A stretch of 63,469 bases of DNA, the filler included, from an uncultured Clostridia bacterium (GTDB taxonomy: Bacteria; CAYTYR01; UBA6262), in assembly GCA_964441745.1 (NCBI GenBank). It is 3 parts of 3 records of this genome, joined end to end, with 100 filler letters (N's around TTAATTAATTAA, not from the genome) between each part and the next. Parts side by side here need not be neighbours in the genome. Positions count along the whole stretch, not along the records: positions 24,732 to 48,676 come from CAYTYR010000026.1; 2 more parts are not named here. One strand, given 5' to 3'. Within the stretch, counting starts at the first letter, position 1, and each line of letters opens with the position of its first letter. Below, in pieces: positions 21,044-57,007 of the stretch. The position numbers were made by a program, and so were the translations under genes. Below the pieces are notes generated by a model. That model saw only the letters and a program-made list of their open reading frames with translations, was not told the DNA's origin and searched no databases.

Positions 21044-22429
21044 GTGAAAATAGAATTAACTTACGGCAAAGACAAAATTATCCTGGATATAGATAATCCC
21101 TTCTTAGCTGGCCCTTTGATCAAACCGAAAGTGAGCCAGGCTCTCCCGGGAACCCCGTGCGAAATCATCAGCCAGAGTTTTCTGACCCCTAAAAATCGTC
21201 CGCCGCTGCGTAATGTGGTTAAAGGGCAACGCGTAGGGCTCGTCGTATCCGATGAATTGCGGGTTGGCTTGCAGGAACAAATAATTTCCTGCCTTTTAGC
21301 GGAAATTGCCGCTGGCTCTCCTGCCGAAGTATTAGTCTTCATTGCTACCGGTTCCCATCACCCTGAAATATATGCTAAAAATATCACTGCCTGGATCCAC
21401 CAGTATGCCCAGGGACTTAAACTTTCCTATCAAATCTTTCCTAACCAATGTGAACGCCAGGATGATTATATCAATCTGGGGCAAACTACCTATCATACAC
21501 CGGTTTATGTCCATAAAATGTGGCTTTCCTGCCCGGTCAGGGTGCATGGCCATGAAGCTAAATATCACTACATGAATGGTTATTCCTGTATTGATAAGCA
21601 TATTGTGCCTGGTTTATCTGCCCATGCGTCTATCCAGGCTAACCATAAGCTGGCTTTGCACCATCATGACTCCGTAGCTGGCAAGAATGCCTGGCATCAG
21701 GACCTGTATCGCCAGAATAATCCATTTTCACAAGATAACAAGCAGTGCCGTAAAATGAGCGAAAGATTCATCTATGACCAGGTAACTGGTACGGTTAAAG
21801 AAGCAGAAGTTATTACTTTTGGGCTGGATATGGTCAGCCAGAAAGACAAAATCTTTTGGATCGACTGTGGTGATCCAGACCTGGTCTGCCAGGATGTCAC
21901 TGTGGCGGTAGATAAATACCTGGGATTTGAAGTGGAAAAGACAAAATATTTAGTGCAGTCTCCTGGTGGTCCACCAGCCAGTGAAACCCTGTATTATGTC
22001 CAGAATGGCTTTGATATGGTCATTAAAGGAGCTCTTTTGCCGGGAGGTGAAGCCCTGGTTTTGGCTCCGTGCAACGGCCGGCCGGAGGTGCCGGAAAATA
22101 TCCGCGGTATCTGTCCTGATCCAGAGTCAATGGAATTATTCTGGAATACCCTGGTGGCCTATCTGGATAAACCTCTATCCGAATGGATAAGTTTTGTCGA
22201 TAAGAATTTTAAGCTTTTTATGTGGAAAACTGACCGGGTTATTAAATTATTTAAGGATTCCGGGATTAAAATATACCTTTATTCCCAGTTACCGGATGAA
22301 GTGGTGCGTAAAGGGGGCTTTATTCCTGTGCCTGATCCGCAAAAGTGGATCGAGGAAAGGGCAGCCCGGAACGACGGTAAAATACGTTGCGTAGATGAAG
22401 CGAATAAACTGTGCGTACTTGGAAAATAA
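21044..22429 (+). CDS. LarA-family (nickel-pincer racemase/epimerase) protein
   Basis: LTYG start; SDELR, ATGSH, HYMNGYS..DK, ANH and SPGG motifs match the LarA/DUF2088 pattern. Confidence 0.75.
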   Translation: MKIELTYGKDKIILDIDNPFLAGPLIKPKVSQALPGTPCEIISQSFLTPKNRPPLRNVVKGQRVGLVVSDELRVGLQEQIISCLLAEIAAGSPAEVLVFIATGSHHPEIYAKNITAWIHQYAQGLKLSYQIFPNQCERQDDYINLGQTTYHTPVYVHKMWLSCPVRVHGHEAKYHYMNGYSCIDKHIVPGLSAHASIQANHKLALHHHDSVAGKNAWHQDLYRQNNPFSQDNKQCRKMSERFIYDQVTGTVKEAEVITFGLDMVSQKDKIFWIDCGDPDLVCQDVTVAVDKYLGFEVEKTKYLVQSPGGPPASETLYYVQNGFDMVIKGALLPGGEALVLAPCNGRPEVPENIRGICPDPESMELFWNTLVAYLDKPLSEWISFVDKNFKLFMWKTDRVIKLFKDSGIKIYLYSQLPDEVVRKGGFIPVPDPQKWIEERAARNDGKIRCVDEANKLCVLGK

Positions 22430-23210: not shown

Positions 23211-24545
23211 GTGTATATGGCCAATAATCGGCCGATCACCGGCAAGTATATCGATAAGATGCCTGATGGCACCATTAAACAGTTAAACCCGTTTACTGGT
23301 ACCGAGGTATGGACAGTGCCTGGCAGGGGTGGGAAACCTATTACCAATGAAATACCTAAAAATGCTAAAAAAATAGAAAGGCATGATCCGGAAAATTACT
23401 GCAATTTCTGCGCCTCTAATTATTTAAATACTCCGCCGGAAAAATCAAGACTGGTCAAAGAAGGCGATAAATATAAGATCCTGTATAATGTAGCGGCCCA
23501 GGACTTGAGCGCAACCGTCCCTTTACTGCGCCGTATCCCCAATTTATTTGAAATAGTTTCTTATGATTATTGGGTTAAGAACTATTCTTTCTTCCTGCCA
23601 CAGGACCTGATCAACTGGAAAAATAACTATATGTCCACTCAGGATGGCCAGGACCATGTTTTCAAAATAATCGATATGAAGCTAACCCTGCTGGGCAAAG
23701 ATCCGCAAAAGATCAGCCGGGAGACCAAGCTGGACATGGCCGACGCCTTTTTTGGCGGTTGTCACGAGCTGGTCGTTGCTAACAAACATTATTCTGATAC
23801 CGCTGAATATGATTCCCAGCTTTGTTCCTCAGGAGAACTTACTCCGGAAGAGCATTTCTGGTATATTAAATTCACCATTGAAGCGATCAAGGCGATTCAC
23901 CAGACTAACCGTTATGTGCGGTATATCAGCGTGTTCCAGAACTGGCTCTCCAGCGCTGGTGCCAGCTTTGACCATTTGCATAAGCAATTAGTGGCAATCG
24001 ATGAATGGGGTACGTCTATTGAGGAAGAAAGTGAATTGGTGCGTGGAAACCCCAATATTTACAATGAACTGGCAGCGAATTATGCCGGCTACCAGAACCT
24101 GGTTTTTGCGGAGAATGATTATGCCGTGGCTTTTGCCGATTTTGGCCACCGGTATCCGACTATTGCCGTTTATTCGAAGAGCCCATATTCGAATATCTGG
24201 GAATTAAGCGATGAGGAAATAAAAGGATTCAGCGATATCGTCCACGGTTGCCATGCGGCCATGGGATCGCGCATCCCCTGCAATGAAGAATGGTATTATA
24301 AACCGTTGGATGCTGATTTTGCCATGCCTTGGCATATTCTGATCAAATGGCGGGTAAATACGCCGGCCGGATTTGAAGGCGGGACAAAAATCTATATCAA
24401 TACTATCGATCCGGTTAACCTGCGGGATAAAATGGTACCCCGGCTTTTCGAACTGAAAAACCAGGGTAAGATCGCTAAATTCAATATCGCGTTTGAATGT
24501 CCTTGTTTGCCAAACAGTTTGAAATATAATCCCGCAGTAAGATAA
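23211..24545 (+). CDS. GalT/HIT-fold nucleotidyltransferase-like protein (DUF4921-like)
   Basis: NPFTGTEVW, CNFC, GASFDHLHKQ and AGFEGGT motifs. Confidence 0.8.
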   Translation: MYMANNRPITGKYIDKMPDGTIKQLNPFTGTEVWTVPGRGGKPITNEIPKNAKKIERHDPENYCNFCASNYLNTPPEKSRLVKEGDKYKILYNVAAQDLSATVPLLRRIPNLFEIVSYDYWVKNYSFFLPQDLINWKNNYMSTQDGQDHVFKIIDMKLTLLGKDPQKISRETKLDMADAFFGGCHELVVANKHYSDTAEYDSQLCSSGELTPEEHFWYIKFTIEAIKAIHQTNRYVRYISVFQNWLSSAGASFDHLHKQLVAIDEWGTSIEEESELVRGNPNIYNELAANYAGYQNLVFAENDYAVAFADFGHRYPTIAVYSKSPYSNIWELSDEEIKGFSDIVHGCHAAMGSRIPCNEEWYYKPLDADFAMPWHILIKWRVNTPAGFEGGTKIYINTIDPVNLRDKMVPRLFELKNQGKIAKFNIAFECPCLPNSLKYNPAVR

Positions 24546-24631: not shown

Positions 24632-24731
24632 NNNNNNNNNNNNNNNNNNNNNNNNNNNNNNNNNNNNNNNNNNNNTTAATTAATTAANNNNNNNNNNNNN
24701 NNNNNNNNNNNNNNNNNNNNNNNNNNNNNNN
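24632..24731. other. artificial contig linker
   Basis: N44-TTAATTAATTAA-N44 (stops in all six frames). Confidence 0.98.
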
Positions 24732-25461
24732 CGGCCTGATATAATTCCTGGAAATCTTTCTTGGCCATCTCCCCAAAACTGATGAACACTAAAACAGCGG
24801 CGCGGGCTTTGATCTCCTTAATAATGCCGGCCAGTTCCCCGGCGGTATAACCCCGGTCCTCGCCGCTTTGCAGCACTAAGGCTTTAAACCCGTACTTTTC
24901 TACCGCTTCCACGGCTGTCTCAATAATTTCCTGGCCGGTCATGCGGTAACGCTGCAAGCCGGTAACCGTATCCGCGATCCCGCAGTACACGCAATTGCTG
25001 CCGCAGTAGTTAGAAATCTCGATAATCCCGTGGACACAGCAGGCATTGCCGTGATATTTCTGGCGCAGGAAATTAGCGGTTTTGTAAAACAACTGCTGGG
25101 AAGAATTATCATCCAAATCCAGTAAATACAAGTATTCTTCCCGGGATAAACTTTTTTCATCGGTCACTTTATCCAGGATCTGGCCCAGTGTCTGATCCAT
25201 CCCCTGCTTTTCCAGCTCTACCCGGGAAAGCCGGACATCCAGGTCCTGCAGTTCAAAGAACAGTTCCCGCCAGGTGGCTAAAATATCTTCCGCTTCCCGC
25301 GGCGATATCTTTTCGATAACAAAACCGCCCTGGGCATAAATATAGTCACCCACGGCCAGTCCGGTCAGTTCATTCAGGGCCTTTTTGCGCTCACCAAAAT
25401 AATTGACCGTCACGAACTTATCATCTATCGCTGCCACTTTACCCGGTATCGCGTAACACAT
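24732..25461 (-). CDS. HypC-like domain fused to a HydE/BioB-like radical SAM domain (3'-truncated by contig end)
   Basis: MCYAIPGKV...GDYIYAQGG N-terminus; IIEISNYCGSNCVYC (CxxxCxxC); LVLQSGED. Confidence 0.85.
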
Positions 25462-25525
25462 ATAAATAAATCCTTAGCTTGCTCTAATCCGCGTTATCGT
25501 ATTCCGAAAATCCGCGTAATCTTCT

Positions 25526-25768
25526 TCATTCGCAATCGAAAGACACTAAGCGTAGTTCCCTCGTCTTGCTGGGCTCAATTACCAGTTCAGCCCCGGCCAG
25601 GATAGTATCTTTGCCGTGCTCCTGAAAAAAGAACCGTAATACCTCTTCGTTTATTTCCGTAAAAGTCCCCAGCCGCAGATAGATCCTGGTGATCCTGGCG
25701 GCTTTTTGCTCTGCCCCTAATTTCAGCAAGTCGGTAAAGATATCTTTCACTAAATGCATTTCATGCAC
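25526..25768 (-). CDS. hypA: short HypA/HybF nickel metallochaperone lacking the Zn-binding domain
   Basis: MHE start, LRLG..TEI, GAELVIE, ELRLVSFDCE; no CxxC pairs. Confidence 0.85.
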   Translation of the reverse strand: MHEMHLVKDIFTDLLKLGAEQKAARITRIYLRLGTFTEINEEVLRFFFQEHGKDTILAGAELVIEPSKTRELRLVSFDCE

Positions 25769-25824
25769 AGTTAACCTCGGTCTAAAGGTATTAGGTTACT
25801 TACATCCATACCTACTTCTATAAC

Positions 25825-26295
25825 TTACACCTGATTTCTGTTTATGTACCTAATAATCTCATCTGCTGTCGCTTTTACTTCCCGGGATAATTCTTCTTTA
25901 TGCTCTACGCTTTTAGGCTGGATCCCGATCATGACTGCCTGGGCCGCGGTATCATGGAGCAATAAATGATAAACCACCTTTAACGGTACCGCGTGGGTGC
26001 TTAAGGAAGCATCCGGGATATGTTCCTGGTCAATGACCCGCGCCTCCCCGGGAGCGCCCTGGAAATCAGCGGCATCGATAAAAATGATCCTGGCCGGATG
26101 CAGGGCAATGACCTGCTCAATAATATTTTCCGGGGTATAACCGGCATTAATTATTTTAAGCTGCTTCGTCTCTGTGATCAGAGGACCTAGATACGGTCCT
26201 ACCCCGTCGTCAGCGCGGAGAGTATTACCGATGGTAATGATGACATTAATACCTGGGATGGTCGTTAGGGCGGAGCAGACTTCAGCGGTTAACAA
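25825..26295 (-). CDS. hydrogenase maturation endopeptidase (HycI-like)
   Basis: IGNTLRADDGVG, PEN, IDAA and STH motifs; TTG start after AAAGGA. Confidence 0.9.
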   Translation of the reverse strand: MLTAEVCSALTTIPGINVIITIGNTLRADDGVGPYLGPLITETKQLKIINAGYTPENIIEQVIALHPARIIFIDAADFQGAPGEARVIDQEHIPDASLSTHAVPLKVVYHLLLHDTAAQAVMIGIQPKSVEHKEELSREVKATADEIIRYINRNQV

Positions 26296-26386
26296 GTTAG
26301 TCCTTTCGGAAACTTGTTGATTACACAGATTAAAAAAAAGATTACACAGATTATTAAGTGTAATCAAAGATAGGATTTGTAAAATT

Positions 26387-27715
26387 CTATCTTATGAATT
26401 TGACATTTAAAAAGTGTGCAGAGCAGGAAATACAAGGATCATAAGCGCGGACCAGCATTTCCATCATGAGGGTGATCTCTTCTTCGGTCTTATGCAGGAT
26501 TTCCGGCACGAGTTTCTGCATGTCTCTTTCTATATTATTACAATTTTGGCCTGTGGGAATAATGCAATTCGCATTCACGATCTTACCGGCAGCGTCAATT
26601 TCGTAATTATGGAAAAGTATGCCGCGGGGCACTTCTACCGCGCCCACCCCATTGCCGGCTTTGACCGGGATAGTGCCTTTTTCATTCAAACCGACAATGA
26701 TCGCTTCTTCCTGTTTCACGCCGTTTTCCTTGAAATCTTCCAGGATAGCGATCGAATCTTCCAGGCAGTGCACGCATTCCACAGCCTGCGCCACGGTATT
26801 CATGAAAGGATTGGTACAGCCAGGTTTAATTTTCAGGAATTCAGCGGCTTTTTTAGCCTTGGGATGCAGCTTGTCATAATTCAGGTTCAGCCGGGCCAGG
26901 GCGCCGACCATATAGGACTCGCGGCTGGCTTTAGCATGCTTAGCTGAAGAATGATCAACAATAAATTCATTGGTCAGTTTACGGTAATCTTTTTTATTAA
27001 GCTTCAGCCCGTCAGTGGATCCCAATTCACCTTCCATTAACGGATACTCATCAGTGTTGTTGATCAGGGCCACATACTCTGTGGGCCGGGAAAATTCAGG
27101 GAATTTCAAGGCGCCCAGCAGCTCGATCGTGGCTTCCATATCCGGTTGCAGGCCTTTCAATATTTCCAGCATGGAATCAAGGTCTTTAGGCTGAGGCAGT
27201 TTAGTAAAACCGCCAACTATCGCTGAGATTGGGTGGATATGCCGGCCAACCAAGATATCACAGACATCATTGCAGTTTTTCTTCATCCGTAAGGCCCGGC
27301 GCACTACAGTATTATGCGTATCGATCAAAGGGACGAAACTCTTCACCCCTAAAAGGTCAGGCGCCACCAGCAAATATATATGCAGGATGTGGCTGTCGAG
27401 CATTTCCTGGTGTAAAAGCAGTTTGCGTAATTTAACGGTTTGCGCGCTGGGCGTGAACCCGAGCGCGTCCTCAGCCGCCAGGATCGAAGCCAGGCTGTGG
27501 CCACAAGCGCAAATGCCGCAAATACGCGAAGTAATATGCTGGGCTTCGAAGATGGAACGGCCGCGCAGCATGCCTTCAAAGAAACGGGGCGCTTCAACAA
27601 TATCCAGGCGGCATTCTTCCATCTTGCCATCCTTGACATTGACCACGATATTACCGTGGCCTTCCACCCGGGTTAAATATTCAACATTGACTTTAACATT
27701 CTTACTTGCGCTCAT
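26387..27715 (-). CDS. group 3b [NiFe]-hydrogenase large (alpha) subunit
   Basis: TRVEGHG, RICGICACGH (L1), EVPRG, DPCISCSAH (L2) plus short cleavable tail. Confidence 0.96.
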   Translation of the reverse strand: MSASKNVKVNVEYLTRVEGHGNIVVNVKDGKMEECRLDIVEAPRFFEGMLRGRSIFEAQHITSRICGICACGHSLASILAAEDALGFTPSAQTVKLRKLLLHQEMLDSHILHIYLLVAPDLLGVKSFVPLIDTHNTVVRRALRMKKNCNDVCDILVGRHIHPISAIVGGFTKLPQPKDLDSMLEILKGLQPDMEATIELLGALKFPEFSRPTEYVALINNTDEYPLMEGELGSTDGLKLNKKDYRKLTNEFIVDHSSAKHAKASRESYMVGALARLNLNYDKLHPKAKKAAEFLKIKPGCTNPFMNTVAQAVECVHCLEDSIAILEDFKENGVKQEEAIIVGLNEKGTIPVKAGNGVGAVEVPRGILFHNYEIDAAGKIVNANCIIPTGQNCNNIERDMQKLVPEILHKTEEEITLMMEMLVRAYDPCISCSAHFLNVKFIR

Positions 27716-28448
27716 CTAGTTCCCTCGGTTTATTATACAGATCTAATTTATTAATGATCCATTCTAAAGCAATATTAAATTTTTTGAGAATATCTATTTG
27801 GCCGTTCTTAGCCGGATTAGTCACCATCCCGCGGCAGCCATAGCAAATATTCCCGTTATTAACGCACCAGGAATTACAGCCAGCCTTGGTCACCGGACCC
27901 AGGCAGGTGATCCCTTTATCATACATGCAGACATTCTCATTAAGTTTGCATTCCACGCAGACAGCATAATCAGGCACATTATAGGGGATACCGGCTAAAA
28001 TACATTTTAGCACTTTGACGAATTCCGGCTGGTAGACCGGGCATCCATTGACAAAATAATCCACTTTTACGACCTGATGCACAGCCCTGGTCGGCAGGGT
28101 AGGAAAATTATTGGCCTTATCCTGGTAAACATATTTTCCTATTTCGTCCAGCGGAAACTTATTTTTCATGCCATTAATGCCGCCGATAGTAGCGCAGGAA
28201 CCATACGCTACCAGCACTTTGGCCCGGCTGCGGATATGCTTGATCCGTTCGACATCATGCTCAGTGGTAATACTGCCTTCGATGATGGCGACATCGTAAT
28301 CTTCTGATTTTTCGCTCATAACTTCGCGGAAGGTGACCACCTCTATAAGATTGAGGATATCCAGCAAGGTTTCACCAAAATTGGCAACTTGCAGCTGGCA
28401 TCCTTCACAACAGGTAAAATCAAAAAAAGCTACTCTGGGTTTGCCCAT
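27702..28448 (-). CDS. group 3b hydrogenase small (delta) subunit
   Basis: CCEGC, GSCA, GCP and VCVEC..CLG..C..CYGC motifs; start at MGKPRV. Confidence 0.94.
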   Translation of the reverse strand: MGKPRVAFFDFTCCEGCQLQVANFGETLLDILNLIEVVTFREVMSEKSEDYDVAIIEGSITTEHDVERIKHIRSRAKVLVAYGSCATIGGINGMKNKFPLDEIGKYVYQDKANNFPTLPTRAVHQVVKVDYFVNGCPVYQPEFVKVLKCILAGIPYNVPDYAVCVECKLNENVCMYDKGITCLGPVTKAGCNSWCVNNGNICYGCRGMVTNPAKNGQIDILKKFNIALEWIINKLDLYNKPRELDERK

Positions 28449-28449
28449 C

Positions 28450-29289
28450 TTACAACGCTTCCTTTTTGTCTTTAATTTGTTCGTAGGTAAACACCGGGCC
28501 ATCCTTACAGCAATAATAATTCTGGATCTGGCAATGGCCGCATTTACCGATACCGCATTTCATATGCCGCTCCAGGGAGACCAGGATCTGGCGTTCCGGG
28601 ATTTCTTTCTTCAGTAGTTCGATCAGTACAAACTTATACATTACCGGCGGTCCGATGACGGCGGCAAAAGTCCGCTCCGGGTCAAGGTTCACTCCGGGTA
28701 TTAACTTGGTAATCAGGCCGATATTCCCTTTATAGTCAGGGTCTTCGCAGCGATCCACCGTGATGTCAAAATTGACATCCAACCGCTTGCTCCAGGAATC
28801 CACTTCTTCGCCAAAAAGCATATCCTGAGGCGTTTTACAACCCAGCAGGATATTGACCTTGCCGAAATCGCGGCGGTTATCGATGACAAAATTGATCAGG
28901 GACCGCAAAGGCACAATGCCGAGGCCGCCGGCAACGAACAAAAGATCATTGCCTTCCAGTATCTGTACCGGGAAACCTTTGCCGAAAGGCCCGCGGATAC
29001 CGACTGTATCCCCGGTATCAAACTTATGCAGGGCATTGGTCACTTTCCCGACATTCCTGACCACTATCTCAAATGATCCTCTTTTTGTTGGTGATGAAGA
29101 AACAGAAAGCGGCGCTTCCCCTACTCCCGGGATCGAGACCATGACAAACTGGCCAGGTTCATGGTCCAGGCTCTCGCCGCCAGGCAGGGAAATCTCAAAT
29201 AACTTTTCTATTTTAGTCATCTGCCGGGCACGAATGATCTTCCCGGCTTTGACCAGATATTCAGAATCAGTAAGTTTAGCAGTCTTCAT
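28450..29289 (-). CDS. group 3b hydrogenase gamma subunit (FAD/NAD(P)-binding)
   Basis: PGQF, RGPFG, GGLG and CGIGKCGHC..CKDGP motifs. Confidence 0.94.
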   Translation of the reverse strand: MKTAKLTDSEYLVKAGKIIRARQMTKIEKLFEISLPGGESLDHEPGQFVMVSIPGVGEAPLSVSSSPTKRGSFEIVVRNVGKVTNALHKFDTGDTVGIRGPFGKGFPVQILEGNDLLFVAGGLGIVPLRSLINFVIDNRRDFGKVNILLGCKTPQDMLFGEEVDSWSKRLDVNFDITVDRCEDPDYKGNIGLITKLIPGVNLDPERTFAAVIGPPVMYKFVLIELLKKEIPERQILVSLERHMKCGIGKCGHCQIQNYYCCKDGPVFTYEQIKDKKEAL

Positions 29290-30329
29290 TTCTTTTCTTC
29301 CTTACTATCTGCCACTAGCGCATTAATTGTTTCTTTCAGACTGATCTTAGCCATGCAAGTCCTGGTACAGCGTCCGCAGCCAGTGCAAAAATACCGGCTA
29401 TAGCGCTCTACCGGATATTTAAATTTGCGGAAATACCGGTGCCGCTGGCGGGCACCCCGGGTCTTGCGGAAATTTTCCCCACCGGCAACTTTAGCAAAAG
29501 GCTCATTCTGGCAGCCATCCCACATCCTGGTCCGGTCACCGGTATTGAGATCAAGGTTTAGGTTGTCAAGCATATCAAAACAGTAGCAGGAAGGACAAAC
29601 ATTGGTGCAATTGCCACAGGCGATACACCGGGCACCAAGATCATCCCAGACTTTGCTGTCAAAGGATTTGTCAAACAGCTTAACCAGGTCATTATGGTTT
29701 ACTTTGACTTCGTCCTTAAAAATATCCCTTTTCTTTTGCCTGACCGCTTCAAGCTGGTCCAAGTGTACCTGCTCAGCCGGGTTAAACAATCTGGTCTTAT
29801 CGATCAGTTCATCGCCATAAATAGTATTTACATGCACAATGAAGCTATCGGTAAGCTCGGTAAAGAACAGATCATATCCGCCATTGGGCAGGTGATTGTC
29901 CACCACTTTGCAGCTGGCATACTGGTCGCAGTATTCATTGCATTCCAAACCAATAATAATGATCTTATTTTTCCGGACCAGGTAATTGATATCCTTGGGT
30001 TTATCGGAAAAAACCATATTCAGGCACTGGATACCGGCCAGATCACAGGTGTGGACGCCGAAAATGACCATTTTTTCATATTCCAGCAAAGCCTCAAAGG
30101 TACCGGCGCTTTTATTGAATTCTATTAGTTTCTCGCGTTGGGGGAAAAAATATTTCTTGGGAGGCAAGATGGTAGGGATATATTTCACAGCCACATCCTG
30201 GCCGCTTTTCACTTCCTGGAACGAAAAAGTATTATAGCCACGGGCCACCGGAGCGACGACTTTTTCAATCCGGGCCAGGCTGGTAATAAAATCATTGAAA
30301 TTTGCTTTTTTTAGGACTTGGTATTGCAT
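29286..30329 (-). CDS. group 3b hydrogenase beta subunit (Fe-S)
   Basis: PPKKYFFP, CIACGNCTNVCPSCYC and CTGCGRCTRTC motifs. Confidence 0.94.
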   Translation of the reverse strand: MQYQVLKKANFNDFITSLARIEKVVAPVARGYNTFSFQEVKSGQDVAVKYIPTILPPKKYFFPQREKLIEFNKSAGTFEALLEYEKMVIFGVHTCDLAGIQCLNMVFSDKPKDINYLVRKNKIIIIGLECNEYCDQYASCKVVDNHLPNGGYDLFFTELTDSFIVHVNTIYGDELIDKTRLFNPAEQVHLDQLEAVRQKKRDIFKDEVKVNHNDLVKLFDKSFDSKVWDDLGARCIACGNCTNVCPSCYCFDMLDNLNLDLNTGDRTRMWDGCQNEPFAKVAGGENFRKTRGARQRHRYFRKFKYPVERYSRYFCTGCGRCTRTCMAKISLKETINALVADSKEEKK

Positions 30330-35927: not shown

Positions 35928-36716
35928 TTAACCGACTATAATCTCTATTTCCGTTCCTTCCTTGGCTTTCATAATCTGGCTGGCATTCCCCTGATTGACG
36001 GCTATTTCCAAGCAGTCGTTAGAGCCGACCACCGCCAGTATTTGCCCCGCTGCGCTATCAGCATAACTGCTGCTCAATTTTTCGATTTTATGATCCTTGA
36101 TCTTAATGACCATTTTCCGCAGCGACAATTTTTGCACCATCCCGCCGCTGATGTTAGTCACCAGATTGCCAAAATGGTCAGTGTATATTACTTTTCCGGA
36201 TACCCCGTGGCGATGGATCCGCGGACTCAGGATCGTGAACTTCTTATATTCGTTAGTCGGCTCGCCAAACTTACTGATCTGTACGCCTTTGGACAGTTGC
36301 GCGGCCACCGGGGCAAAAATATCCCGCCCGTGAAAAGTATTGCTGATATCCTGCAGGAAATATTTTTTATTGTTTAACTCCACTATTTTTTTGATCTTCT
36401 CATTTTCCAGGGCAAAGCTGAGAGCCCCGTTGTCCGGGCCGATAAAAAAATAATCTTCTGTTTCTACCAGGATAGACCGGCGGTTACTGCCCACTCCCGG
36501 GTCGATCACGACCAGGAAAATAGTCCCCTTGGGGAAAAAATGATAGCTGGTACGCAAGACAATGGATGCCTCGAGCGTATTATGAGAGCTGACCGTATGG
36601 GTTAAATCTATTAATACCGCATTTGGATTAATAGACAGGATGACTCCTTTCATGGTTCCAACAAAACCATCTTTATAACCGAAATCAGTCATTAAGGCGA
36701 TATTTCTTTTTTTCAT
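35928..36716 (-). CDS. SAM hydrolase / SAM-dependent halogenase family (DUF62)
   Basis: TDFG, IDPGVG, GPDNG, TFHGRD and DHFGN motifs. Confidence 0.95.
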   Translation of the reverse strand: MKKRNIALMTDFGYKDGFVGTMKGVILSINPNAVLIDLTHTVSSHNTLEASIVLRTSYHFFPKGTIFLVVIDPGVGSNRRSILVETEDYFFIGPDNGALSFALENEKIKKIVELNNKKYFLQDISNTFHGRDIFAPVAAQLSKGVQISKFGEPTNEYKKFTILSPRIHRHGVSGKVIYTDHFGNLVTNISGGMVQKLSLRKMVIKIKDHKIEKLSSSYADSAAGQILAVVGSNDCLEIAVNQGNASQIMKAKEGTEIEIIVG

Positions 36717-48776: not shown

Positions 48777-49606
<830 letters not shown>

Positions 49607-49724
49607 ATAATTATAGAGTAGATCAATCTGCTCTAATCTTACTGTTTGCTAGCTTTACTATTTTTTGTTGATTCTGTTAAGAATCGACAAGGTTTATGGT
49701 TTTTACCATATTGCACCTATTCAG

Positions 49725-49737
49725 TTATCAAAGAACT
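49725..49737 (-). promoter_or_regulatory. boxA-like rRNA antitermination element
   Basis: AGTTCTTTGATAA in the rrn leader. Confidence 0.65.
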
Positions 49738-49790
49738 TTTGAAAACAAAAATATACAAAACCACTTACCACTTTCTTAAGTGGTTTAACT

Positions 49791-49943
49791 ATTATACTTA
49801 TTATAAAATTATTGTCAAGAATTATTTTAAATTTATTTGCGAGGATTTATTGCGAAGGTTATTTACTGCCGGGAATTCTGCTTGCTGTTCCCTCCCTTCT
49901 TGCATCCATTGTTAATAGTACCAGAACCTCTAAATAATGTCAA
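49791..49943 (-). promoter_or_regulatory. tandem rRNA promoters P1 and P2
   Basis: TTGACA-17-TACTAT (49943-49915) and TTGACA-16-TATAAT (49818-49791). Confidence 0.8.
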
Positions 49944-50135
49944 GCGGTATTTTTAATATTTCTTTGCAATGTCCTTTTACTACTGCGGAAAAATCTTTTC
50001 TGCTGCGCCTGCTTCTCTCGTTCCTAACTTATCTCTGATAAGCTTCGTCTCTCGTTCATTGTCTTCCGCCACTAAGGCTTTGGCGGGCACAGCGCCAAAG
50101 TACCAGTGGCGGACAAAAGACCTTCCTCAGAAACC

Positions 50136-50645
50136 TTATTCAGAAAGCTTACTTATATTGTTTTGATCAATGACCTTAAATTTTATTTCATTAGCTAATT
50201 CATTATAATGTTTATCGAAAGCTATTACAGCATCGATATTAATTCGTTTATCCTTATTTTCCTTTTTCCTAATATCTCTAATAAAACCCGCACTAGAACA
50301 ATCAATAAAACTCATATAATATCCATACTTATTCTTCTCAATGAATAATTTATAGCTAGCTTCAAACATTTTTTCATTTACATTAAAGATTTTAAAAGTA
50401 TCGCACATTTCCTTAGCTGCTTTTGGAACTAGAGAAATAGCAGCTTTACAACTTGACAGTCTTTGAAGAGTTTCACAATATATATAATCAGTTATAACAA
50501 ATACGGGCTTTAGTGAATTTCCTTCTAATAACTCTTTTATTGCTATTGCATCTTTATGAAATGAGTCATCTTTATTTAAATAGGCAATTAAAAAAGAAGT
50601 ATCCAATAAAATATGTTTTTTATAGCACATATTTAAATTTGACAC
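50136..50645 (-). CDS. PIN-domain (VapC-like) toxin
   Basis: LLDTSFLIA, D.FH, E, SFIDC and AFD..Y motifs. Confidence 0.9.
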   Translation of the reverse strand: MSNLNMCYKKHILLDTSFLIAYLNKDDSFHKDAIAIKELLEGNSLKPVFVITDYIYCETLQRLSSCKAAISLVPKAAKEMCDTFKIFNVNEKMFEASYKLFIEKNKYGYYMSFIDCSSAGFIRDIRKKENKDKRINIDAVIAFDKHYNELANEIKFKVIDQNNISKLSE

Positions 50646-50770
50646 TTCTTTTCTTTAATGCAAATAGATGTGTCAAATCCAAAGTTTATAGGTTTTATTC
50701 CAAAAAAACCATTACTAAGGCTTTTTTTCTTTTTACATTTATATGCTGTTATATTCCTTTTTTTCTTCAT
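50633..50770 (-). CDS. putative 45-aa antitoxin (not in ORF track)
   Basis: GAGGA SD; MKKKRNITAYKCKKKKSLSNGFFGIKPINFGFDTSICIKEKKCQI; overlaps the PIN start. Confidence 0.5.
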   Translation of the reverse strand: MKKKRNITAYKCKKKKSLSNGFFGIKPINFGFDTSICIKEKKCQI

Positions 50771-51003
50771 TTAATTCCTCGTACTGTTAATATATACTAA
50801 TTCCGTATATTTTTCAAGCCTTTTCTTTGTTCACACTTATTTTTTATAAAAATGATTATATTCACCCCGATGGACATCGGGGCAGGGATTATAAAAGAGA
50901 TTACGCTGATTAAAACTAATTTACACCTGCGCGGTGACCACGCGCCACAGGGGGCTCCGCGCAGGTGAATACCGGTTGCTCATTTACTTTTATCTTTTTT
51001 TCC

Positions 51004-51462
51004 TTAATCCAATTGTGCGGCCTTCTTTAGATTATCGGCGTCGATTTTGTCTTGCGGCCTGGCGCTCGTCTCTTTTGACCGAATCAGATCGGATCGTGAA
51101 ATAAACGAAATCTTAAGATTATCTAATACCACCATCTCACGGTTCTTCCACGCATCTTCAAATCTAATTCCTGGAATGGACATCATAATATCTACACGCA
51201 AAGGCGGCCTTCCCATCTGATAGAAATAACCCCGTTGCGTAAAGTCATCAGCAGTAAGGTTTACCAATGGAGCGCCAAAATCCTTAAGCGCCGCATATAC
51301 TGCATTCGCATTCTCCGGATCAGTCGCTATTAGTATATCAAGATCTTTCGTAAATCGCGGTTCGCTGTATTTCATAACCGCGTAGCCGCCTACGACAAGA
51401 TAGCGAACTTTATTCTTTTCGAAAAGATTCAACAGTTCTTTGAAGTCGGCATTCGTTAACAT
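51004..51462 (-). CDS. Pol-beta-like nucleotidyltransferase (TA-associated)
   Basis: VVGGYA..Y..PR.TKDLD, K....RPQD..D motifs. Confidence 0.85.
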   Translation of the reverse strand: MLTNADFKELLNLFEKNKVRYLVVGGYAVMKYSEPRFTKDLDILIATDPENANAVYAALKDFGAPLVNLTADDFTQRGYFYQMGRPPLRVDIMMSIPGIRFEDAWKNREMVVLDNLKISFISRSDLIRSKETSARPQDKIDADNLKKAAQLD

Positions 51463-51619
51463 TTTTACCTCTAATCAAAAAATAGTCCCGCAGCATTTCG
51501 GACACTGCCTCAAAAATGGCGCGATCCCCTTGCGATTGCCAAAAACGAATATCAAAGGACCGTCTGTCATCGGTGATACGCTGATAGTTTTCCTGTATTT
51601 TCATTTTATCTCCTGCCAC
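51410..51619 (-). CDS. small partner protein of the nucleotidyltransferase
   Basis: D..FW.S...RLQRTV motif, overlaps the NTase start. Confidence 0.65.
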   Translation of the reverse strand: MAGDKMKIQENYQRITDDRRSFDIRFWQSQGDRAIFEAVSEMLRDYFLIRGKNVNECRLQRTVESFRKE

Positions 51620-51684
51620 TATATCACATATTCAATTTTGCTGGCGTTGAACAACTCTAACAGTTCTTTGAAGTCTTTCTGCAC
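51619..51684 (-). pseudogene. truncated nucleotidyltransferase N-terminus
   Basis: MQKDFKELLELFNASKIEYVI* aligns with the intact DFKELLNLFEKNKVRYLV. Confidence 0.7.
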
Positions 51685-51835
51685 TTCCACAATATTGCCT
51701 CCTGAGCATTTCAACGGCATCAATTCGTTCCCGCGGAGTTTTCTTCAGCCAGTATTGCAAGTCTTCCTCAACGATACTCTTATCGCTCAAATATTTTATT
51801 TTTATGACTTTCTTGTTTAATCTAGACTTTCTCAT
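51632..51835 (-). CDS. small protein paralogous to 51410-51619
   Basis: DLQYWLKKTPRERI..RLQRTV. Confidence 0.65.
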   Translation of the reverse strand: MRKSRLNKKVIKIKYLSDKSIVEEDLQYWLKKTPRERIDAVEMLRRQYCGSAERLQRTVRVVQRQQN

Positions 51836-51964
51836 TAAATCCCCTCAGTAACTATAACATATTGTTTCTATTTGCTAAGCCTTTCACGTTTCAGTGCCCG
51901 ACCCTGTGGTTTCCCCGTGGGTTCTCGCATAATGAACCGATTTTGCATCCAGTAGATTAGATTG

Positions 51965-52591
51965 TTACTTTTTCTTGTATTTAATTAACACACATGTTGC
52001 GCACCAAGCACTCTCTTCAACTTCATATATTTTTGTGCTTTTTGAAGAGACTTGATAATCTTCCCCTAAAATATCTTTAATTTTCTTTTCTATCCGTACT
52101 TTTTTATCTTCAATCTTTTGTTTTGCACTTTTTTGTTTGCCATCATCTGCTGCATCGTAATATCCCAACAAGCCGAATTGAAGTGAAGATTGGTTAGATT
52201 TTGGTTTTAAAAATTGCTTTATCCTTTTTATGTCTTTTTCATATTGTTTAAAATCATAAATAAATAATTTTATTTCAATTACTGCTCTTGGTGTATTATT
52301 GCCCCACCATAGCAATATGTCGACCTTGCCTTTCTCTCTAATATCCTTAGGTAATCTTCCTCTTCCCCGCGCACCTGCATCTTCTATTGTAGCAGTTGAA
52401 CCATGTTCCAAAGTGATATATTTTGACCCATCAATCTCTGACATTTCTTTGGCAACATTTATCGTAATTAGATACTCAGGTGCATTCCAAAGCCAATCAC
52501 CACCAGACCATCTTTCATACTGTTTCTGAGATTTCTTAATTCCAGAAAATGTTGCAGTTATTAGTTTATCAATAGAAATTTGTTTGGACAT
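51965..52591 (-). CDS. putative PD-(D/E)xK nuclease-fold protein
   Basis: PE, GKVDILL..VIEIK motifs; AT-rich. Confidence 0.55.
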   Translation of the reverse strand: MSKQISIDKLITATFSGIKKSQKQYERWSGGDWLWNAPEYLITINVAKEMSEIDGSKYITLEHGSTATIEDAGARGRGRLPKDIREKGKVDILLWWGNNTPRAVIEIKLFIYDFKQYEKDIKRIKQFLKPKSNQSSLQFGLLGYYDAADDGKQKSAKQKIEDKKVRIEKKIKDILGEDYQVSSKSTKIYEVEESAWCATCVLIKYKKK

Positions 52592-52707
52592 TTTATCTCT
52601 CTCATTTTTTATAAAACATAACAAAAATAATTAAAAAAGCAAAGGGGGCTCGCACTGAAAGTTGAAAGTAACGTCCATATCTCTTCTTTAAATAAAATTG
52701 ATAAAAT

Positions 52708-53886
52708 CTAATCTTTTTTTACCCTTCTAAATTGCCTTGTTCCGCTTTGGATGATGTGTTCTTTGGTAAGATCTATCGGAGTTTTAGGATCAGATATTTT
52801 TTCGCCATCAAGTTTGATAGCGCCTTGCTCAAATAACCTCTTTGCTTCTCGTTTCGAAATAGCCATCCCAGAAGCAAAAACCACATCTAATGCAGGTAAT
52901 ACATCCTCATTGAACATCTTTACTATAATATCTGTAGGAAGTTGCCCTTCCTTAAAAACATTTTCGAATTCGGCGCGGGCAAGCTTAGCAGTAGCCTCAT
53001 CATAGAACCTGGCGACCATGGTCTCACCAAGTTTTTTCTTGGCTTCCATGGGGTGTTGTTTTTTGATCTCTGCCACTTCCTCATTAGTCAGTAGTTCATA
53101 ATACCGGTACATCAATTCATCAGTGATGCTCATGGTCTTGCCAAATATTTCCTTAGGTGGTTCAGTGATGCCTATATAATTATTGTAGGACTTGCTCATT
53201 TTGCGAACGCCATCCAGACCTTCCAGTAAAGGCATAGTCAAAACTACCTGTGCGCTTTTCTTACCATAATCACGCATCAATTCCCGGCCCACCAACAGGT
53301 TGAACTTTTGGTCACTGCCGCCGATCTCAACATCCGCATCGATCTGCACAGAATCAAAACCCTGCATCAAAGGATAAAGAAATTCCAAGATGGAGATCGG
53401 AGTCCCTTCCTTATAGCGCTTCTGAAAATCATCTCTTTCCAGCATCCGCGCCACTGTGTAGCGAGAAGCCAGACCGATGATCTCCTTGACACCCATCTTC
53501 CCCAGCCAATGAGAATTATATACTACTTCTAATCTGGCTGGATCCTTATCTAATATCTTAAATACCTGTTGTAAATAGGTCTCCGCATTCCTGGCCACTT
53601 CTTCCGCGGTCAATGGCTTGCGGGTCTCAGAGCGGCCGCTGGGATCACCGATTTGAGCGGTAAAGTCACCTATCAAAAATACCACTTTATGGCCCAATTC
53701 TTGAAACTGCCGCAGCTTAGTAAGAACTACAGTATGCCCTAAATGGATATCCGCGGTCGTAGGATCAACTCCGAATTTGATGCGCAAAGGCCGGTTTTCC
53801 TGCAGTTTTTTAACCAGCTCATCTTCACTGATTAACTCCACCGCGCCCTTTTTTATTAGTTTTAATTGACTGTTTAAATCCTGCAT
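52708..53886 (-). CDS. tyrS: tyrosyl-tRNA synthetase
   Basis: DPT..HLGH, YPLMQGFD, GGSDQ, KMSKS, S4 domain. Confidence 0.98.
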   Translation of the reverse strand: MQDLNSQLKLIKKGAVELISEDELVKKLQENRPLRIKFGVDPTTADIHLGHTVVLTKLRQFQELGHKVVFLIGDFTAQIGDPSGRSETRKPLTAEEVARNAETYLQQVFKILDKDPARLEVVYNSHWLGKMGVKEIIGLASRYTVARMLERDDFQKRYKEGTPISILEFLYPLMQGFDSVQIDADVEIGGSDQKFNLLVGRELMRDYGKKSAQVVLTMPLLEGLDGVRKMSKSYNNYIGITEPPKEIFGKTMSITDELMYRYYELLTNEEVAEIKKQHPMEAKKKLGETMVARFYDEATAKLARAEFENVFKEGQLPTDIIVKMFNEDVLPALDVVFASGMAISKREAKRLFEQGAIKLDGEKISDPKTPIDLTKEHIIQSGTRQFRRVKKD

Positions 53887-54150
53887 ATGGCAAGATATTA
53901 CCACAGGAACTGGCTAATGGCAAGTAAAAATATCGCCAACCCCTGGCTATCCTGATAGCTCATTAAATATATTCAACACCGTTATCTTAATCATATAGTC
54001 GTCAAGCGAGATGGTTCGACAGGCTCACCATTTCATTATAGATTGAGTCCTGAGCTTGTCGAAGGATGAGATTACGCGGATTACAAAAACAGATGACACG
54101 GATTTTAAATCCTGTTGCAAATTTTGGGATAATGTGTTATTATCTTTTTC

Positions 54151-56151
54151 ATGCGCAAAAAACAGGTAATAGTAAGCAGAATTATAATAGCCATACTTCT
54201 CTGCGCTTTAATTGGCGCCGGAGCGGTTTTGCAGCTCTTCCGCAAATATGCCAAAGAGCTTCCTTCTACTACAGCTCTGGAAGAATACAAACCAGGCCTG
54301 ATCACCCGTTTTTATGATATTCATAATGAAGTGATCGCGGAAATGTTCACTGAACGGCGAACCGTAGTACAATTACAAAGAATACCGGTAGACCTGCAAA
54401 ACGCAGTCATTGCTACGGAAGATGAGCGTTTCTTCAGGCATTGGGGTATCGACCTGCGCGGTATTGGCAGAGCCTTCATGAATAATCTCTGCCGGGGCCG
54501 GGTGGTTGAAGGCGGCAGTACTATCACCCAGCAATTGGCCAGGGCCCTTTTTCTAACCCAGGACCGGACCTTCCAGCGCAAGATCAAGGAAGCGTTGTTA
54601 GCGCTGCAAATTGAAAAGAAATATACTAAAGAAGAAATATTGCAGATGTACTTGAATCAGGTGTTTTTTGGCCATGGCGCATATGGTGTCGAACAAGCTT
54701 CCAGGATTTATTTCGGCAAGCATGTTCAGGATTTGAACCTGGCAGAATGCGCACTTTTAGCCGGCTTGCTACGGGCGCCAAAAGCTTACTCTCCGTTTAA
54801 CAAACCTGCTTCAGCCCAGCGCCGGGCCCAGACCGTGTTAGGCCTGATGTATAATCAAAAATATATTTCCAGGGAAGAAAGAGATAAAGCGCTTCAATAT
54901 AAATACTATACCCAGCGTCCAAAATATGTTTCCAATGCTGCTCCATACTTCATTGAAAATATAAAATTGGAACTGGAAGACAAATATGGCACTGATGCGA
55001 TCTATAAAGGTGGCCTGCAGATTTACACTACTCTGGATTTAGGAATGCAGCGTAATGCAGAAATGGCCTTAGACAAGAAATTAAGCCCTTATGATATTAC
55101 TGCTTCCACCGATGCGCCGGTACAATGCGGCTTGATCGCCATTGATCCCAAGAACGGGCAGATCAGAGTTTTGGTTGGCGGTCGTAGTTTTGAAAAAAGC
55201 CAATTCAACCGGGTCACCCAGGCTAAACGTCAGCCAGGCAGCGCTTTTAAAACTTTTGTTTTCACCGCTGCATTGGAAAGTGGCTTAACCCCATCATCGC
55301 TGATCGATGATTCCCCGGTCACCTTGGTAGGAGGAGATGAAAAAGAATGGATCCCGCAAAATTATGATCAGAAATTCTGGGGGCCAACTACCTTGCGCCG
55401 GGCTTTGGAAAATTCCCGCAATGTCTGCGCAGTCAAACTTACGGTACAATTAACGCCGGAAACAGTGGCTATTTATGCCAGGCAATTAGGAATACAAAGC
55501 AAGTTAGGGAATAACTTATCTTTGTCTCTCGGCACCAGTGAAGTAACCCTGCAAGAGATTACCAGTTCTTTTTGTACTTTTGCTAATTATGGCATCAGGA
55601 CTATGCCTTATAGCATAATAATGATCAAAGACGCCAGCGGTAATATATTGGAACAGAACATCCCGGTGGAAGAACCAGTCCTTTCAGAACAAACTACTTA
55701 CCTCATGACTAATTTACTTAAAGGCGTAGTAAAGAATGGCACAGGCTACGCGGCTAGAGCTCTGGGCCGTCCCTGCGCCGGGAAAACCGGCACCAGCAAT
55801 GATTACCGGGATGCCTGGTTCATCGGCTATACTCCGGATTTGGCCTGCGGAGTGTGGATCGGTTATGACGATCATCGGATTATCGGTGAAAAACAAACCG
55901 GCGGAGTGATCGCTTGCCCGATCTGGACAGATTTCATGGAACAGTCCCTGCAAAATATCCCGGCCAGTGATTTTAAGATCCCCTCGAAAATCAAACAGGT
56001 TCAGATAGATTATAAATCAGGATTACTGGCGCCTCCTAATTGGCCAAAACCTTTCCTGGAAAGCTATTTAGCTGGAACAGAGCCTACTGAGTACGCTTCT
56101 CCTAGGATAAGCAAAGAAGAAATAACTGGTGTAGGTGAAGGCGGCTATTAG
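54151..56151 (+). CDS. class A penicillin-binding protein 1A
   Basis: EDERF..H.G, GGSTITQQ, SAFK, SRN and KTG motifs. Confidence 0.96.
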   Translation: MRKKQVIVSRIIIAILLCALIGAGAVLQLFRKYAKELPSTTALEEYKPGLITRFYDIHNEVIAEMFTERRTVVQLQRIPVDLQNAVIATEDERFFRHWGIDLRGIGRAFMNNLCRGRVVEGGSTITQQLARALFLTQDRTFQRKIKEALLALQIEKKYTKEEILQMYLNQVFFGHGAYGVEQASRIYFGKHVQDLNLAECALLAGLLRAPKAYSPFNKPASAQRRAQTVLGLMYNQKYISREERDKALQYKYYTQRPKYVSNAAPYFIENIKLELEDKYGTDAIYKGGLQIYTTLDLGMQRNAEMALDKKLSPYDITASTDAPVQCGLIAIDPKNGQIRVLVGGRSFEKSQFNRVTQAKRQPGSAFKTFVFTAALESGLTPSSLIDDSPVTLVGGDEKEWIPQNYDQKFWGPTTLRRALENSRNVCAVKLTVQLTPETVAIYARQLGIQSKLGNNLSLSLGTSEVTLQEITSSFCTFANYGIRTMPYSIIMIKDASGNILEQNIPVEEPVLSEQTTYLMTNLLKGVVKNGTGYAARALGRPCAGKTGTSNDYRDAWFIGYTPDLACGVWIGYDDHRIIGEKQTGGVIACPIWTDFMEQSLQNIPASDFKIPSKIKQVQIDYKSGLLAPPNWPKPFLESYLAGTEPTEYASPRISKEEITGVGEGGY

Positions 56152-56205
56152 AAACGGCGTATAGCGTATGGCGTATAGCGTATAGCAAAAGCAAGGAGGA
56201 AACAA

Positions 56206-56736: not shown

Positions 56737-56753
56737 CCTGCCTACTGGCAGGT

Positions 56754-56995: not shown

Positions 56996-57007
56996 GTATA
57001 GGATATA

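Follow-up and report, generated by a model that had tools for sequence, protein, structure and literature searches.

HypC carries the iron unit of the cofactor to the large subunit of [NiFe] hydrogenases through its residue Cys2 (cf. PMC11565642, PMC12130793), and, to our knowledge, the anaerobic origin of the CO ligand in this cofactor has long been unresolved. HypX, a member of an unrelated protein family, relies on chemistry derived from formyl-tetrahydrofolate, and the HydEF protein of algae is a fusion of maturase genes. Assembly of the [NiFe] cofactor is considered to centre on the HypCD complex (PMC11565642). In the maturation of [FeFe] hydrogenases, two further articles describe that HydG makes Fe(CO)2(CN)(cysteinate) from tyrosine, that the 5'-deoxyadenosyl radical of HydE attacks the cysteine sulfur and cleaves the S-C-beta bond, and that residues M224 and M291 of the T. 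maritima enzyme (TmHydE) hold an Fe(CO)2(CN)S species during turnover (PMC11826987, PMC10114646). Here, we describe a gene that joins a HypC-type domain to a HydE-like radical S-adenosylmethionine (SAM) domain, found in a stretch of 63,469 nucleotides from an uncultured Clostridia bacterium (GCA_964441745.1). This whole stretch, hereafter the window, consists of three contigs (1-24631, 24732-48676, and 48777-63469, with GC contents of 0.448, 0.449, and 0.444) joined by N-linkers. Comparative genomics and modelling suggest that the fusion, together with HydG, probably assembles the Fe-CO/CN unit and supplies it to [NiFe] enzymes, replacing HypC, HypD, HypE, and HypF.

The HypC-HydE-like fusion and its family

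The fusion-related features of the window are given below. Throughout, L denotes a locus, G a genome, and P the representative of a protein cluster; L001 and G001 are the same relative.

24733..25461, minus strand: 5' part of the HypC-HydE-like fusion gene, with the ATG at 25461, 243 of about 433 codons and no stop (translation; Pfam, NCBIfam)
25270..25461, minus strand: HypC-type OB domain, residues 1-64 (PF01455, 53.7 bits; Met1-Cys2 and Pro6; canonical His replaced by Gln44 in YAQGG)
25177..25269, minus strand: helical linker between both domains, residues 65-95 (AlphaFold2 model of the L001 orthologue: helix 54-79, lower-confidence stretch 80-90)
24733..25176, minus strand: N-terminal half of the HydE-like radical SAM TIM barrel, residues 96-243 (HydE is the top NCBIfam match; L001 orthologue compared with T. 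maritima HydE)
25030..25041, minus strand: clade-specific C141-C142-V-H144 motif on strand beta-1 (standalone HydE has [V/I][H/Y/L][L/F]R there)
24982..25005, minus strand: CX3CX2C radical SAM [4Fe-4S] motif, CGSNCVYC, residues 153-160 (C153, C157, and C160 invariant in 77/77 fusions)
24632..24731, no strand: N-linker joining two contigs, which truncates the fusion gene and at which its 3' end is lost

The translated product begins with MCYAIPGK and carries YAQGG at residues 42-46, IEISNYC at 147-153, and LQSGED at 197-202. A preliminary description of this DNA had read one open reading frame (ORF) with a HypC-like N-terminus (MC start) and a CxxxCxxC radical SAM domain containing the IEISNYC and LQSGED motifs; translation and the Pfam and NCBIfam searches recover every motif that it named. 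It had also taken the gene to be cut by the contig end, and the cut is indeed found, at the N-linker inside the window, whereas the start coordinate of 24732 proved to lie one base outside the last codon. The Pfam HupF_HypC profile covers residues 1-64 with an E value of 2.4e-14 and exceeds its cut-off of 28.5 bits, and the NCBIfam HypC model TIGR00074 reaches 41.8 bits, below its cut-off of 48. The Pfam Radical_SAM profile matches residues 147-218 at 26 bits against a cut-off of 29.5, because the domain is cut by the contig joint. Among NCBIfam models, HydE ranks first (102 bits, E 2.9e-29, profile positions 2-149 of 340), followed by PylB (73 bits), HydG (55.5), ThiH (46), and BioB (37); the 102 bits for HydE, against an equivalog cut-off of 254.6, reflect the truncation of the fragment. 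The closest relative, L001, encodes a complete fusion of 433 amino acids (aa) that is 89% identical to the window protein over residues 1-243. In the window, tblastn with the Rex, histidine kinase, NuoF/GltD, [FeFe] HydA, NuoE, and HydG proteins encoded downstream in L001 found no counterparts, and neither the remainder of the fusion gene nor its downstream neighbours lie there.

A HMMER library search with the window protein yielded 1985 matches at E<=1e-3. The collinear two-domain architecture (alignment from query residue <=18 to >=225) is present in 22 of the 150 best representative clusters, and full-length family members have 420-450 aa. In a scan of one genome per species, 581 relatives were found and the best 80 loci (L001-L080) were analysed. 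The match begins at query residue 1 in 78 of these 80; it begins later in L054 and L079 because a contig start cuts the gene. ORF calling and clustering likewise gave a single open fusion frame in 78 of the best 80 loci, none being called in L005 and L064. The combination of HupF_HypC and Radical_SAM, for which the preliminary description proposed a search, is a recurrent two-domain form (22/150 clusters, 78/80 genomes). The fusion-bearing genomes are labelled Omnitrophota, Margulisiibacteriota/Saganbacteria/WOR-1, Caldatribacterium/Atrimonadaceae, Scalindua/Brocadiaceae/Planctomycetia, Brevinematales/Spirochaetes, Elusimicrobia, Riflebacteria, and a few others, and closed chromosomes with the fusion include G029 and G039. 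In a sample of 201 genomes from the phylum of G005, the fusion was detected in 24. For the window itself, two Logan contigs match without any difference: one of 19,908 nt, from run X1 (possibly the source sample), spans 24733-26400 and continues for about 9.4 kb beyond the contig end, and one of 626 nt, from another sample (X2), spans 25057-25682. Runs X3 and X4 contain no more than small or divergent parts. Verification of the junction in reads had been proposed earlier, and contigs from two samples do cover the domain junction without a difference, this support consisting of assembled contigs and not of raw reads. A read-level artefact, the first of the outcomes by which the preliminary description thought the fusion might fall, is contradicted by the collinear full-length gene in 78/80 independent species genomes and by the occurrence of the fusion in 24/201 genomes of the phylum sample and on closed chromosomes. 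The closest neighbours of the fusion clade are three unfused cluster representatives of 342-365 aa (P0039, P0044, and P0048), which carry the same C142/H144 signature and may represent split forms or gene calls truncated at the N-terminus.

Met1, Cys2, and Pro6 are invariant in 77/77 aligned fusions. The loss of the usual His, noted earlier from YAQG, extends to the family, in which the fusions read A-Q-G-G against V-H-[A/V]-G in four standalone HypC proteins of a related phylum; we take the His of the V-H-x-G motif to be His51 in E. coli numbering. Against PF01455, the HypC domain of the fusions reaches only 40-60 bits, where standalone HypC from the same phylum reaches 76-100; the domain matches the solved HypC structures 2z1c and 3vyr. 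The remainder of the L001 orthologue aligns end-to-end with T. maritima HydE (phmmer E 3e-67, with PylB next at 8e-23). The AlphaFold2 model of the L001 fusion, with a predicted local distance difference test value (pLDDT) of 93.6 and a predicted template modelling (TM) score (pTM) of 0.92, superimposes on HydE structures in Foldseek with a TM score of 0.93, a root-mean-square deviation of 1.4 A, and 37% identity. Residues corresponding to TmHydE M224 and M291, which in the window lie past the contig end, are Met in 73/73 and 72/73 fusions, respectively, and in 20/20 standalone HydE. Of the clade-specific motif, C142 and H144 occur throughout the fusions (73/73) and C141 in nearly all of them (71/73), and the H144 column is Arg in 20/20 standalone HydE from the same genomes. 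The Lys309 column is Arg in 65/73 and Lys in 7/73 fusions but Lys in 19/20 standalone HydE, and all three auxiliary-cluster Cys residues are lost in the fusions and kept in 20/20 standalone HydE.

Against the NCBIfam HydE model, the radical SAM part of the fusions scores 214-276 bits, about 8 of 51 lying above the cut-off (251.1 bits for the G001 copy), compared with 293-378 bits for standalone HydE. In trees rooted on HydG, the fusion radical SAM domains fall on one side of a branch with a FastTree SH-like support of 98 (134 rows). The same branch was recovered in IQ-TREE (LG+C20 PMSF, short search; SH-aLRT 98) from 87 rows, in which 34 of 73 fusion rows and 29 of 37 representative rows were kept, and the phylogenetic comparison suggested in the preliminary description accordingly resolves a clade of their own with both programs. 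Other identities of the radical SAM half were rejected. For BioB, PylB, and ThiH, the profile scores speak against them (P0003 scores 147 bits for PylB and 100 for BioB against 243 for HydE), as does the structural comparison, in which Foldseek gives PylB a TM score of 0.86 with 25% identity and BioB an identity of 18-22%; HmdB reaches 49-105 bits, far under its cut-off of 320.9. The fusion is neither a canonical HypC nor a typical HydE. We regard it as a likely bifunctional maturase of about 433 aa, in which a HypC-type iron-chaperone domain is tethered to a distinct HydE paralogue.

Gene content and neighbourhood of fusion-bearing genomes

Whole-genome profile searches were carried out on 50 of the 80 genomes, chosen in favour of longer contigs and including two closed chromosomes; control genomes were positive in every search. 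The [NiFe] large subunit was detected in 50/50 fusion genomes. HypD was found in 0/50 at E<=1e-3, HypF in 0/50 above the cut-off, HypE in 0/50 above the cut-off, and HypB in 5/50, being absent from 45. The HypC domain is present in 50/50, every above-cut-off match lying within a frame of 425-474 aa, and a standalone HypC in 0/50. HydG was detected above the cut-off in 45/50 genomes, [FeFe] hydrogenase in 23/50, and HydF in 22/50 (19 above the cut-off and 3 just under). A second, standalone HydE occurs in 22/50, in the same 22 genomes as HydF and always with [FeFe] hydrogenase. The other 27/50 genomes have no [FeFe] hydrogenase, and HydF was found in none of those 27 (28/50 are without HydF overall). 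This answers the question, raised in the preliminary description, of whether genomes with the fusion have hypDEF, hydFG, or an [FeFe] enzyme: HypD, HypE, and HypF in 0/50, HydG in 45/50, HydF in 22/50, and [FeFe] hydrogenase in 23/50. It also bears on the second outcome considered there, a bona fide HydE with its own pathway beside a separate normal hypC, which is contradicted by standalone HypC in 0/50 genomes, the extra HydE in 22, and the separate radical SAM clade. For the window organism, the HypDEF status is deduced from its relatives, of which L001/G001 is the closest. Three genomes (G001, G027, and G038) hold two HydG copies each.

In a canonical genome of the same phylum, the genuine HypD, HypF, and HypE proteins reach 496, 801, and 439 bits, respectively. 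When these canonical proteins were used as queries against G029, G039, G007, G202, and G001, no HypD was found, and HypF and HypE gave only fragments of 17-73 bits. Two kinds of weak match were examined and rejected. The HypE-like proteins in L084 and L086 belong to the PurM family, score 102-120 bits against a cut-off of 251.6, match ThiL and SelD about equally well, and are both translated without the C-terminal Cys. A 525-aa HypF-like protein occurs in G003, G012, and G015, of which the scanned G015 copy (L081, 1063-2640) scores 128 bits over profile positions 377-738 only. Other weak HypF-like matches are acylphosphatase-sized or YrdC/Kae1-like pieces.

The complementarity between the fusion and the canonical system was assessed in the phylum sample, in which 49 genomes have a standalone HypC, 24 the fusion, 1 a contig-edge fragment, and 0 both. 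HypD is present in 48/49 standalone-HypC genomes but in 0/24 fusion genomes (Fisher p = 2e-18), and in the sole miss, G194, hypC lies at a contig edge. The fusion and HypD are mutually exclusive. The distribution of HydG was compared with that in 15 HypD-positive genomes chosen for long contigs, in which HydG and [FeFe] hydrogenase occur in exactly the same 7/15 and neither in the other 8. Among genomes without [FeFe] hydrogenase, HydG is found in 25/27 with the fusion vs 0/8 with canonical Hyp (Fisher p = 1.9e-6), and in five further fusion genomes of the phylum sample HydG is present in 5/5 and [FeFe] hydrogenase in 1/5. These counts indicate that HydG tracks [FeFe] enzymes under the canonical Hyp system and tracks the fusion otherwise. 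In two canonical genomes, at L110 (G058) and L111 (G143), hypF, hypC, hypD, and hypE adjoin an [FeFe] hydA-hydG-hydE/hydF cluster, a plausible setting for the origin of a hypC-hydE fusion.

Synteny was counted over the 78 loci with a fusion frame. The fusion closes a [NiFe] hydrogenase operon in these loci, and two operon types were distinguished. The group 3b operon runs in the order beta, gamma, small subunit, large subunit, HycI, short HypA, and fusion, and the group 4 Mrp-linked operon contains NuoH-, NuoB-, NuoC-, NuoD-, and NuoL-like subunits, MnhG, and a NuoI-like ferredoxin. This ferredoxin is the cluster (c14) that had been considered as an accessory maturase and was rejected as such. 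Upstream of the fusion, a [NiFe] large subunit is encoded in 54/78 loci, or in 47/62 of those with at least five called genes on that side. HycI is found within six genes upstream in 34/78 loci, and a short HypA of about 80 aa within the same distance in 33/78, with a CxxC in 0/34 cluster members. The short-form clusters are 7 and 25, and six other loci have a full-length HypA instead (cluster c34). The large subunits keep their C-terminal Cys motif in 39/39 group 3b and 20/20 group 4 enzymes, and a C-terminal extension is present in 39/39 and 9/20, respectively.

HydG is encoded in the fusion locus itself in 32/78 cases and in 29/57 loci with at least three genes downstream, often with a Rex-type regulator between the two genes. 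The HydG family concerned (cluster 5) scores 496 bits against a cut-off of 312. All of the neighbouring HydG proteins carry CX3CX2C (32/32); near the C-terminus, 19 of them have the motif CX2CX22C and 13 have CX5CX19C. Two forms of the protein were seen among L006-L079, one of about 460 aa with CX2CX22C and one of about 500 aa with CX5CX19C, both of which occur in genomes without [FeFe] hydrogenase. On the closed chromosome G029, the fusion, a group 4 [NiFe] hydrogenase, and HydG form one gene string in this order, and genome profile searches of G029 found no [FeFe] hydrogenase, HydF, HypD, HypE, or HypF. In P0006, P0018, and G202, HypC, HydE, and HydG form single polypeptides of 881-915 aa, with HydG parts of 607 and 631 bits in P0006 and P0018. 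The G202 protein (L114, 10651-13398; 915 aa) is encoded by the last gene of an operon with a group 4 [NiFe] hydrogenase, HycI, and short HypA, and the genome search found no [FeFe] hydrogenase in G202. Downstream of the fusion in L001/G001 lie Rex, a kinase, and, at a distance of 6 kb, an operon for an [FeFe] hydrogenase that has a HydE, HydG, and HydF of its own. As this closest relative carries both systems, the window organism probably has both as well. A second copy of the fusion in G038 (contig C1, 57805-67607) has as neighbours HydG, HypB, and a different [NiFe] large subunit, 478 aa long, with a full-length PF00374 match.

A putative HydG-dependent route to the [NiFe] cofactor

The fusion resembles HypC, HybG, and HupF in that its N-terminus matches PF01455, keeps Met1-Cys2 and Pro6, and is encoded with a large subunit, HycI, and HypA. 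It differs from them in being joined to a radical SAM enzyme of 340 aa, in the replacement of His by Gln, and in its lower Pfam score; moreover, HypC is a small standalone protein that acts with HypD, whereas the fusion genomes are without HypD (0/50 and 0/24). With HydE (T. maritima, e.g., 3ciw and 7o1o), it shares the fold, CX3CX2C, the equivalents of M224 and M291, and the co-occurrence with, and sometimes fusion to, HydG. In contrast to HydE, it forms a separate clade, has H144 in place of Arg with an invariant Cys two residues earlier, mostly has Arg for K309, is without the auxiliary-cluster Cys residues, and in 27/50 genomes occurs without HydF or [FeFe] hydrogenase. By analogy, the fusion would work most like a HydE whose product acceptor has changed from HydF to a built-in HypC. 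HydEF and HmdB/HcgA, the latter of [Fe]-hydrogenase, are likewise fusions or HydE/BioB-like radical SAM enzymes in hydrogenase cofactor assembly, but none of them joins a [NiFe]-type chaperone to an [FeFe]-type radical SAM enzyme. HypX is another accessory route that gives a diatomic ligand to the [NiFe] iron (PMC6802093), but it adds to HypCDEF, which the proposed fusion route would replace.

In the proposed route, HydG would cleave tyrosine and build Fe(CO)2(CN)-cysteinate on its auxiliary cluster. The HydE-like barrel would take up that unit and strip the cysteine via the 5'-deoxyadenosyl radical as HydE does, a role suggested by the conservation of the SAM cluster and the Met pair. The mononuclear Fe-CO/CN fragment would be neither dimerised nor passed to HydF; it may instead be trapped by the Cys-Cys-x-His that is specific to the clade and then transferred to Cys2 in the tethered HypC domain, and at some point one CO would have to be exchanged for a second HydG-derived cyanide. 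By homology with the Hyp system, the HypC domain would then insert the iron unit into the apo large subunit, the short HypA would add nickel, and HycI would trim the C-terminal extension. The preliminary description had suggested a hybrid way of building or delivering the Fe-CO/CN unit, and the gene content supports this, HypD, HypE, and HypF being found in 0/50 genomes and HydG in 45/50 vs [FeFe] hydrogenase in 23/50, with the fusion and HypD exclusive and HydG in the same operon or the same polypeptide. Whether this amounts to a complete HypD/E/F-independent [NiFe] cofactor pathway in many anaerobic lineages (Omnitrophota, Margulisiibacteriota/Saganbacteria, Atribacterota, anammox Planctomycetes, Brevinematales, Elusimicrobia, and Riflebacteria), with CO and CN both derived from tyrosine via HydG and the HypC-HydE chimera processing and delivering the iron unit, seems to us about evenly balanced. 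The predicted complex of the L007 fusion with its neighbouring HydG has a score of 0.00 and speaks neither for nor against binding.

Several observations weigh against this route. Every functional step in it is inferred, and the window shows only the first 243 residues of the fusion and no HydG. The HydG product carries two CO and one CN whereas the [NiFe] site needs one CO and two CN, so that an extra ligand-exchange step must be assumed, and HydE chemistry leaves a sulfide on the iron, of which the [NiFe] site has none. No complete HydG was found in G002, G018, and G043, and in G004 and G008 HydG is split at contig ends. In 23/50 genomes, G001 included, full HydEFG and [FeFe] enzymes are also present, and HydG alone cannot discriminate between the two readings there. 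A few genomes hold PurM-family proteins whose best NCBIfam match, below the cut-off, is HypE, and three genomes encode the 525-aa protein matching the C-terminal half of HypF. Finally, the 50 genomes are mostly metagenome-assembled genomes (MAGs) without completeness figures and were picked non-randomly from the best 80 loci.

The explanation ranked as the main rival gives the same players other roles: HydG would provide CO and cyanide in free form, the Cys-Cys-x-His of the barrel and Cys2 of the HypC domain would form a scaffold analogous to HypD, and the radical chemistry would serve a step other than the cleavage of the complex-B cysteine. All of the genomic evidence fits this equally well, and the fusion clade has acquired the invariant C142 and H144 and no longer has the three auxiliary-cluster Cys residues; HydG may also release free CO and CN, according to a review (PMC10114646). 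The SAM-cluster motif and both Met residues that bind Fe(CO)2(CN)S in HydE are strictly conserved, which argues that HydE-type substrate handling is retained, and we consider a HypD-like scaffold unlikely. The fusion and HydG could also build a non-canonical centre, either a [NiFe] site with Fe(CO)2(CN) or the cofactor of some other unrecognised enzyme, since the HydG product is Fe(CO)2(CN)(Cys) and not Fe(CN)2(CO) (PMC11826987) and no enzyme for the extra cyanide step was identified in this analysis. Such a centre is made quite improbable by the large subunits, which keep RxCGxC, DPCxxCxx[H/R] (the C-terminal motif in 39/39 group 3b and 20/20 group 4 enzymes), and protease-cleaved extensions, and by the synteny with hydrogenase structural genes, HycI, and HypA.

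A coincidental join, in which the HypC half serves the [NiFe] enzyme and the HydE half the [FeFe] enzyme with no mechanistic link, would draw on the adjacency of hyp and hyd genes in the canonical genomes of L110 and L111, of the same phylum, which makes an accidental fusion easy to imagine, and on the [FeFe] operon 6 kb downstream of the fusion in L001. It is at odds with the 27/50 fusion genomes that have neither [FeFe] hydrogenase nor HydF, with the 22 genomes in which HydF and [FeFe] hydrogenase are accompanied by a separate, higher-scoring HydE, and with the radical SAM domains forming a distinct clade with its own active-site signature; in addition, a HypC without HypD, HypE, and HypF would have no known source of cargo. 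We judge it highly improbable. As for an artefact, through assembly or gene-calling errors or through hyp genes missing from incomplete MAGs, most genomes are indeed MAGs without completeness figures, and the window is supported by contigs and not raw reads. The frame is continuous in 78/80 independent assemblies, the gene content is the same on the closed chromosomes G029 and G039, and among comparable MAGs HypD was found in 48/49 with a standalone HypC but in 0/24 with the fusion, so that this explanation is largely refuted and its probability is very small indeed.

No description of the fusion or of a HydG-dependent [NiFe] route was found in the literature, subscription journals lying mostly outside the search, and the available parts of PMC9431212 and PMC11216029 are likewise silent. 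The arrangement is provisionally regarded as undescribed. Its parts are known, but at the pathway level it would be, if true, an unprecedented HypDEF-independent radical SAM route to the [NiFe] cofactor. The compact and widespread gene set of [NiFe] structural genes, HycI, short HypA, the HypC-HydE fusion, and HydG, without HypD, HypE, and HypF and mostly without HypB, means that a few genes would suffice for a direct test of the cofactor question, suggests tyrosine as the source of both kinds of ligand, and could give a minimal cassette for the heterologous production of [NiFe] hydrogenases. If the proposed route is true, the [NiFe] CO ligand would have an anaerobic source that is defined genetically, and [FeFe] and [NiFe] maturation would be directly linked in both evolution and mechanism. 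In public databases, these proteins are named 'HydE', 'radical SAM protein', or 'biotin synthase', and genomes could consequently be misscored as unable to mature [NiFe] enzymes or as carrying [FeFe] maturases without a client.

The hydrogenase operon and other features of the window

The fusion had been placed directly downstream of a group 3b hydrogenase, its protease, and hypA, and Pfam searches bear this out, with four hydrogenase subunits, HycI, and HypA on the same strand:

25526..25768, minus strand: short HypA, 80 aa, with the N-terminal MHE nickel domain only and without the CxxC zinc domain (PF01155 profile positions 1-68 of 112)
25825..26304, minus strand: HycI-type maturation endopeptidase (PF01750, 63 bits; tblastn with L001 HycI aligns residues 2-159 at 26301-25828)
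26387..27715, minus strand: [NiFe] hydrogenase large subunit, group 3b type (PF00374; N-terminal RICGIC, C-terminal DPCISCSAH plus an 8-residue extension)
27702..28502, minus strand: hydrogenase small subunit (Oxidored_q6; Pfam)
28450..29289, minus strand: FAD/NAD(P)-binding gamma subunit (Pfam)
29286..30329, minus strand: Fe-S beta subunit (Fer4_22; Pfam)

As listed by ORF calling, the HycI frame begins at 26367, and homology with L001 begins near 26301. A 13-mer, AATCTGTGTAATC, is present in the window in seven copies at <=1 mismatch vs 0.12 expected, mostly paired and 21-22 nt apart, at 26319-26352, 56754-56788, 56855-56867, and 56960-56993. For the intergenic copy that lies between the large subunit and HycI, a match of about 36 nt recurs on many unrelated contigs from four metagenome runs, and the repeat may be a dispersed small repeat or an operator. 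Unrelated genes nearby encode a LarA N-terminal domain protein (21044-22429, plus strand), a DUF4921 protein (23211-24545, plus strand), and a SAM hydroxide adenosyltransferase (35928-36716, minus strand).

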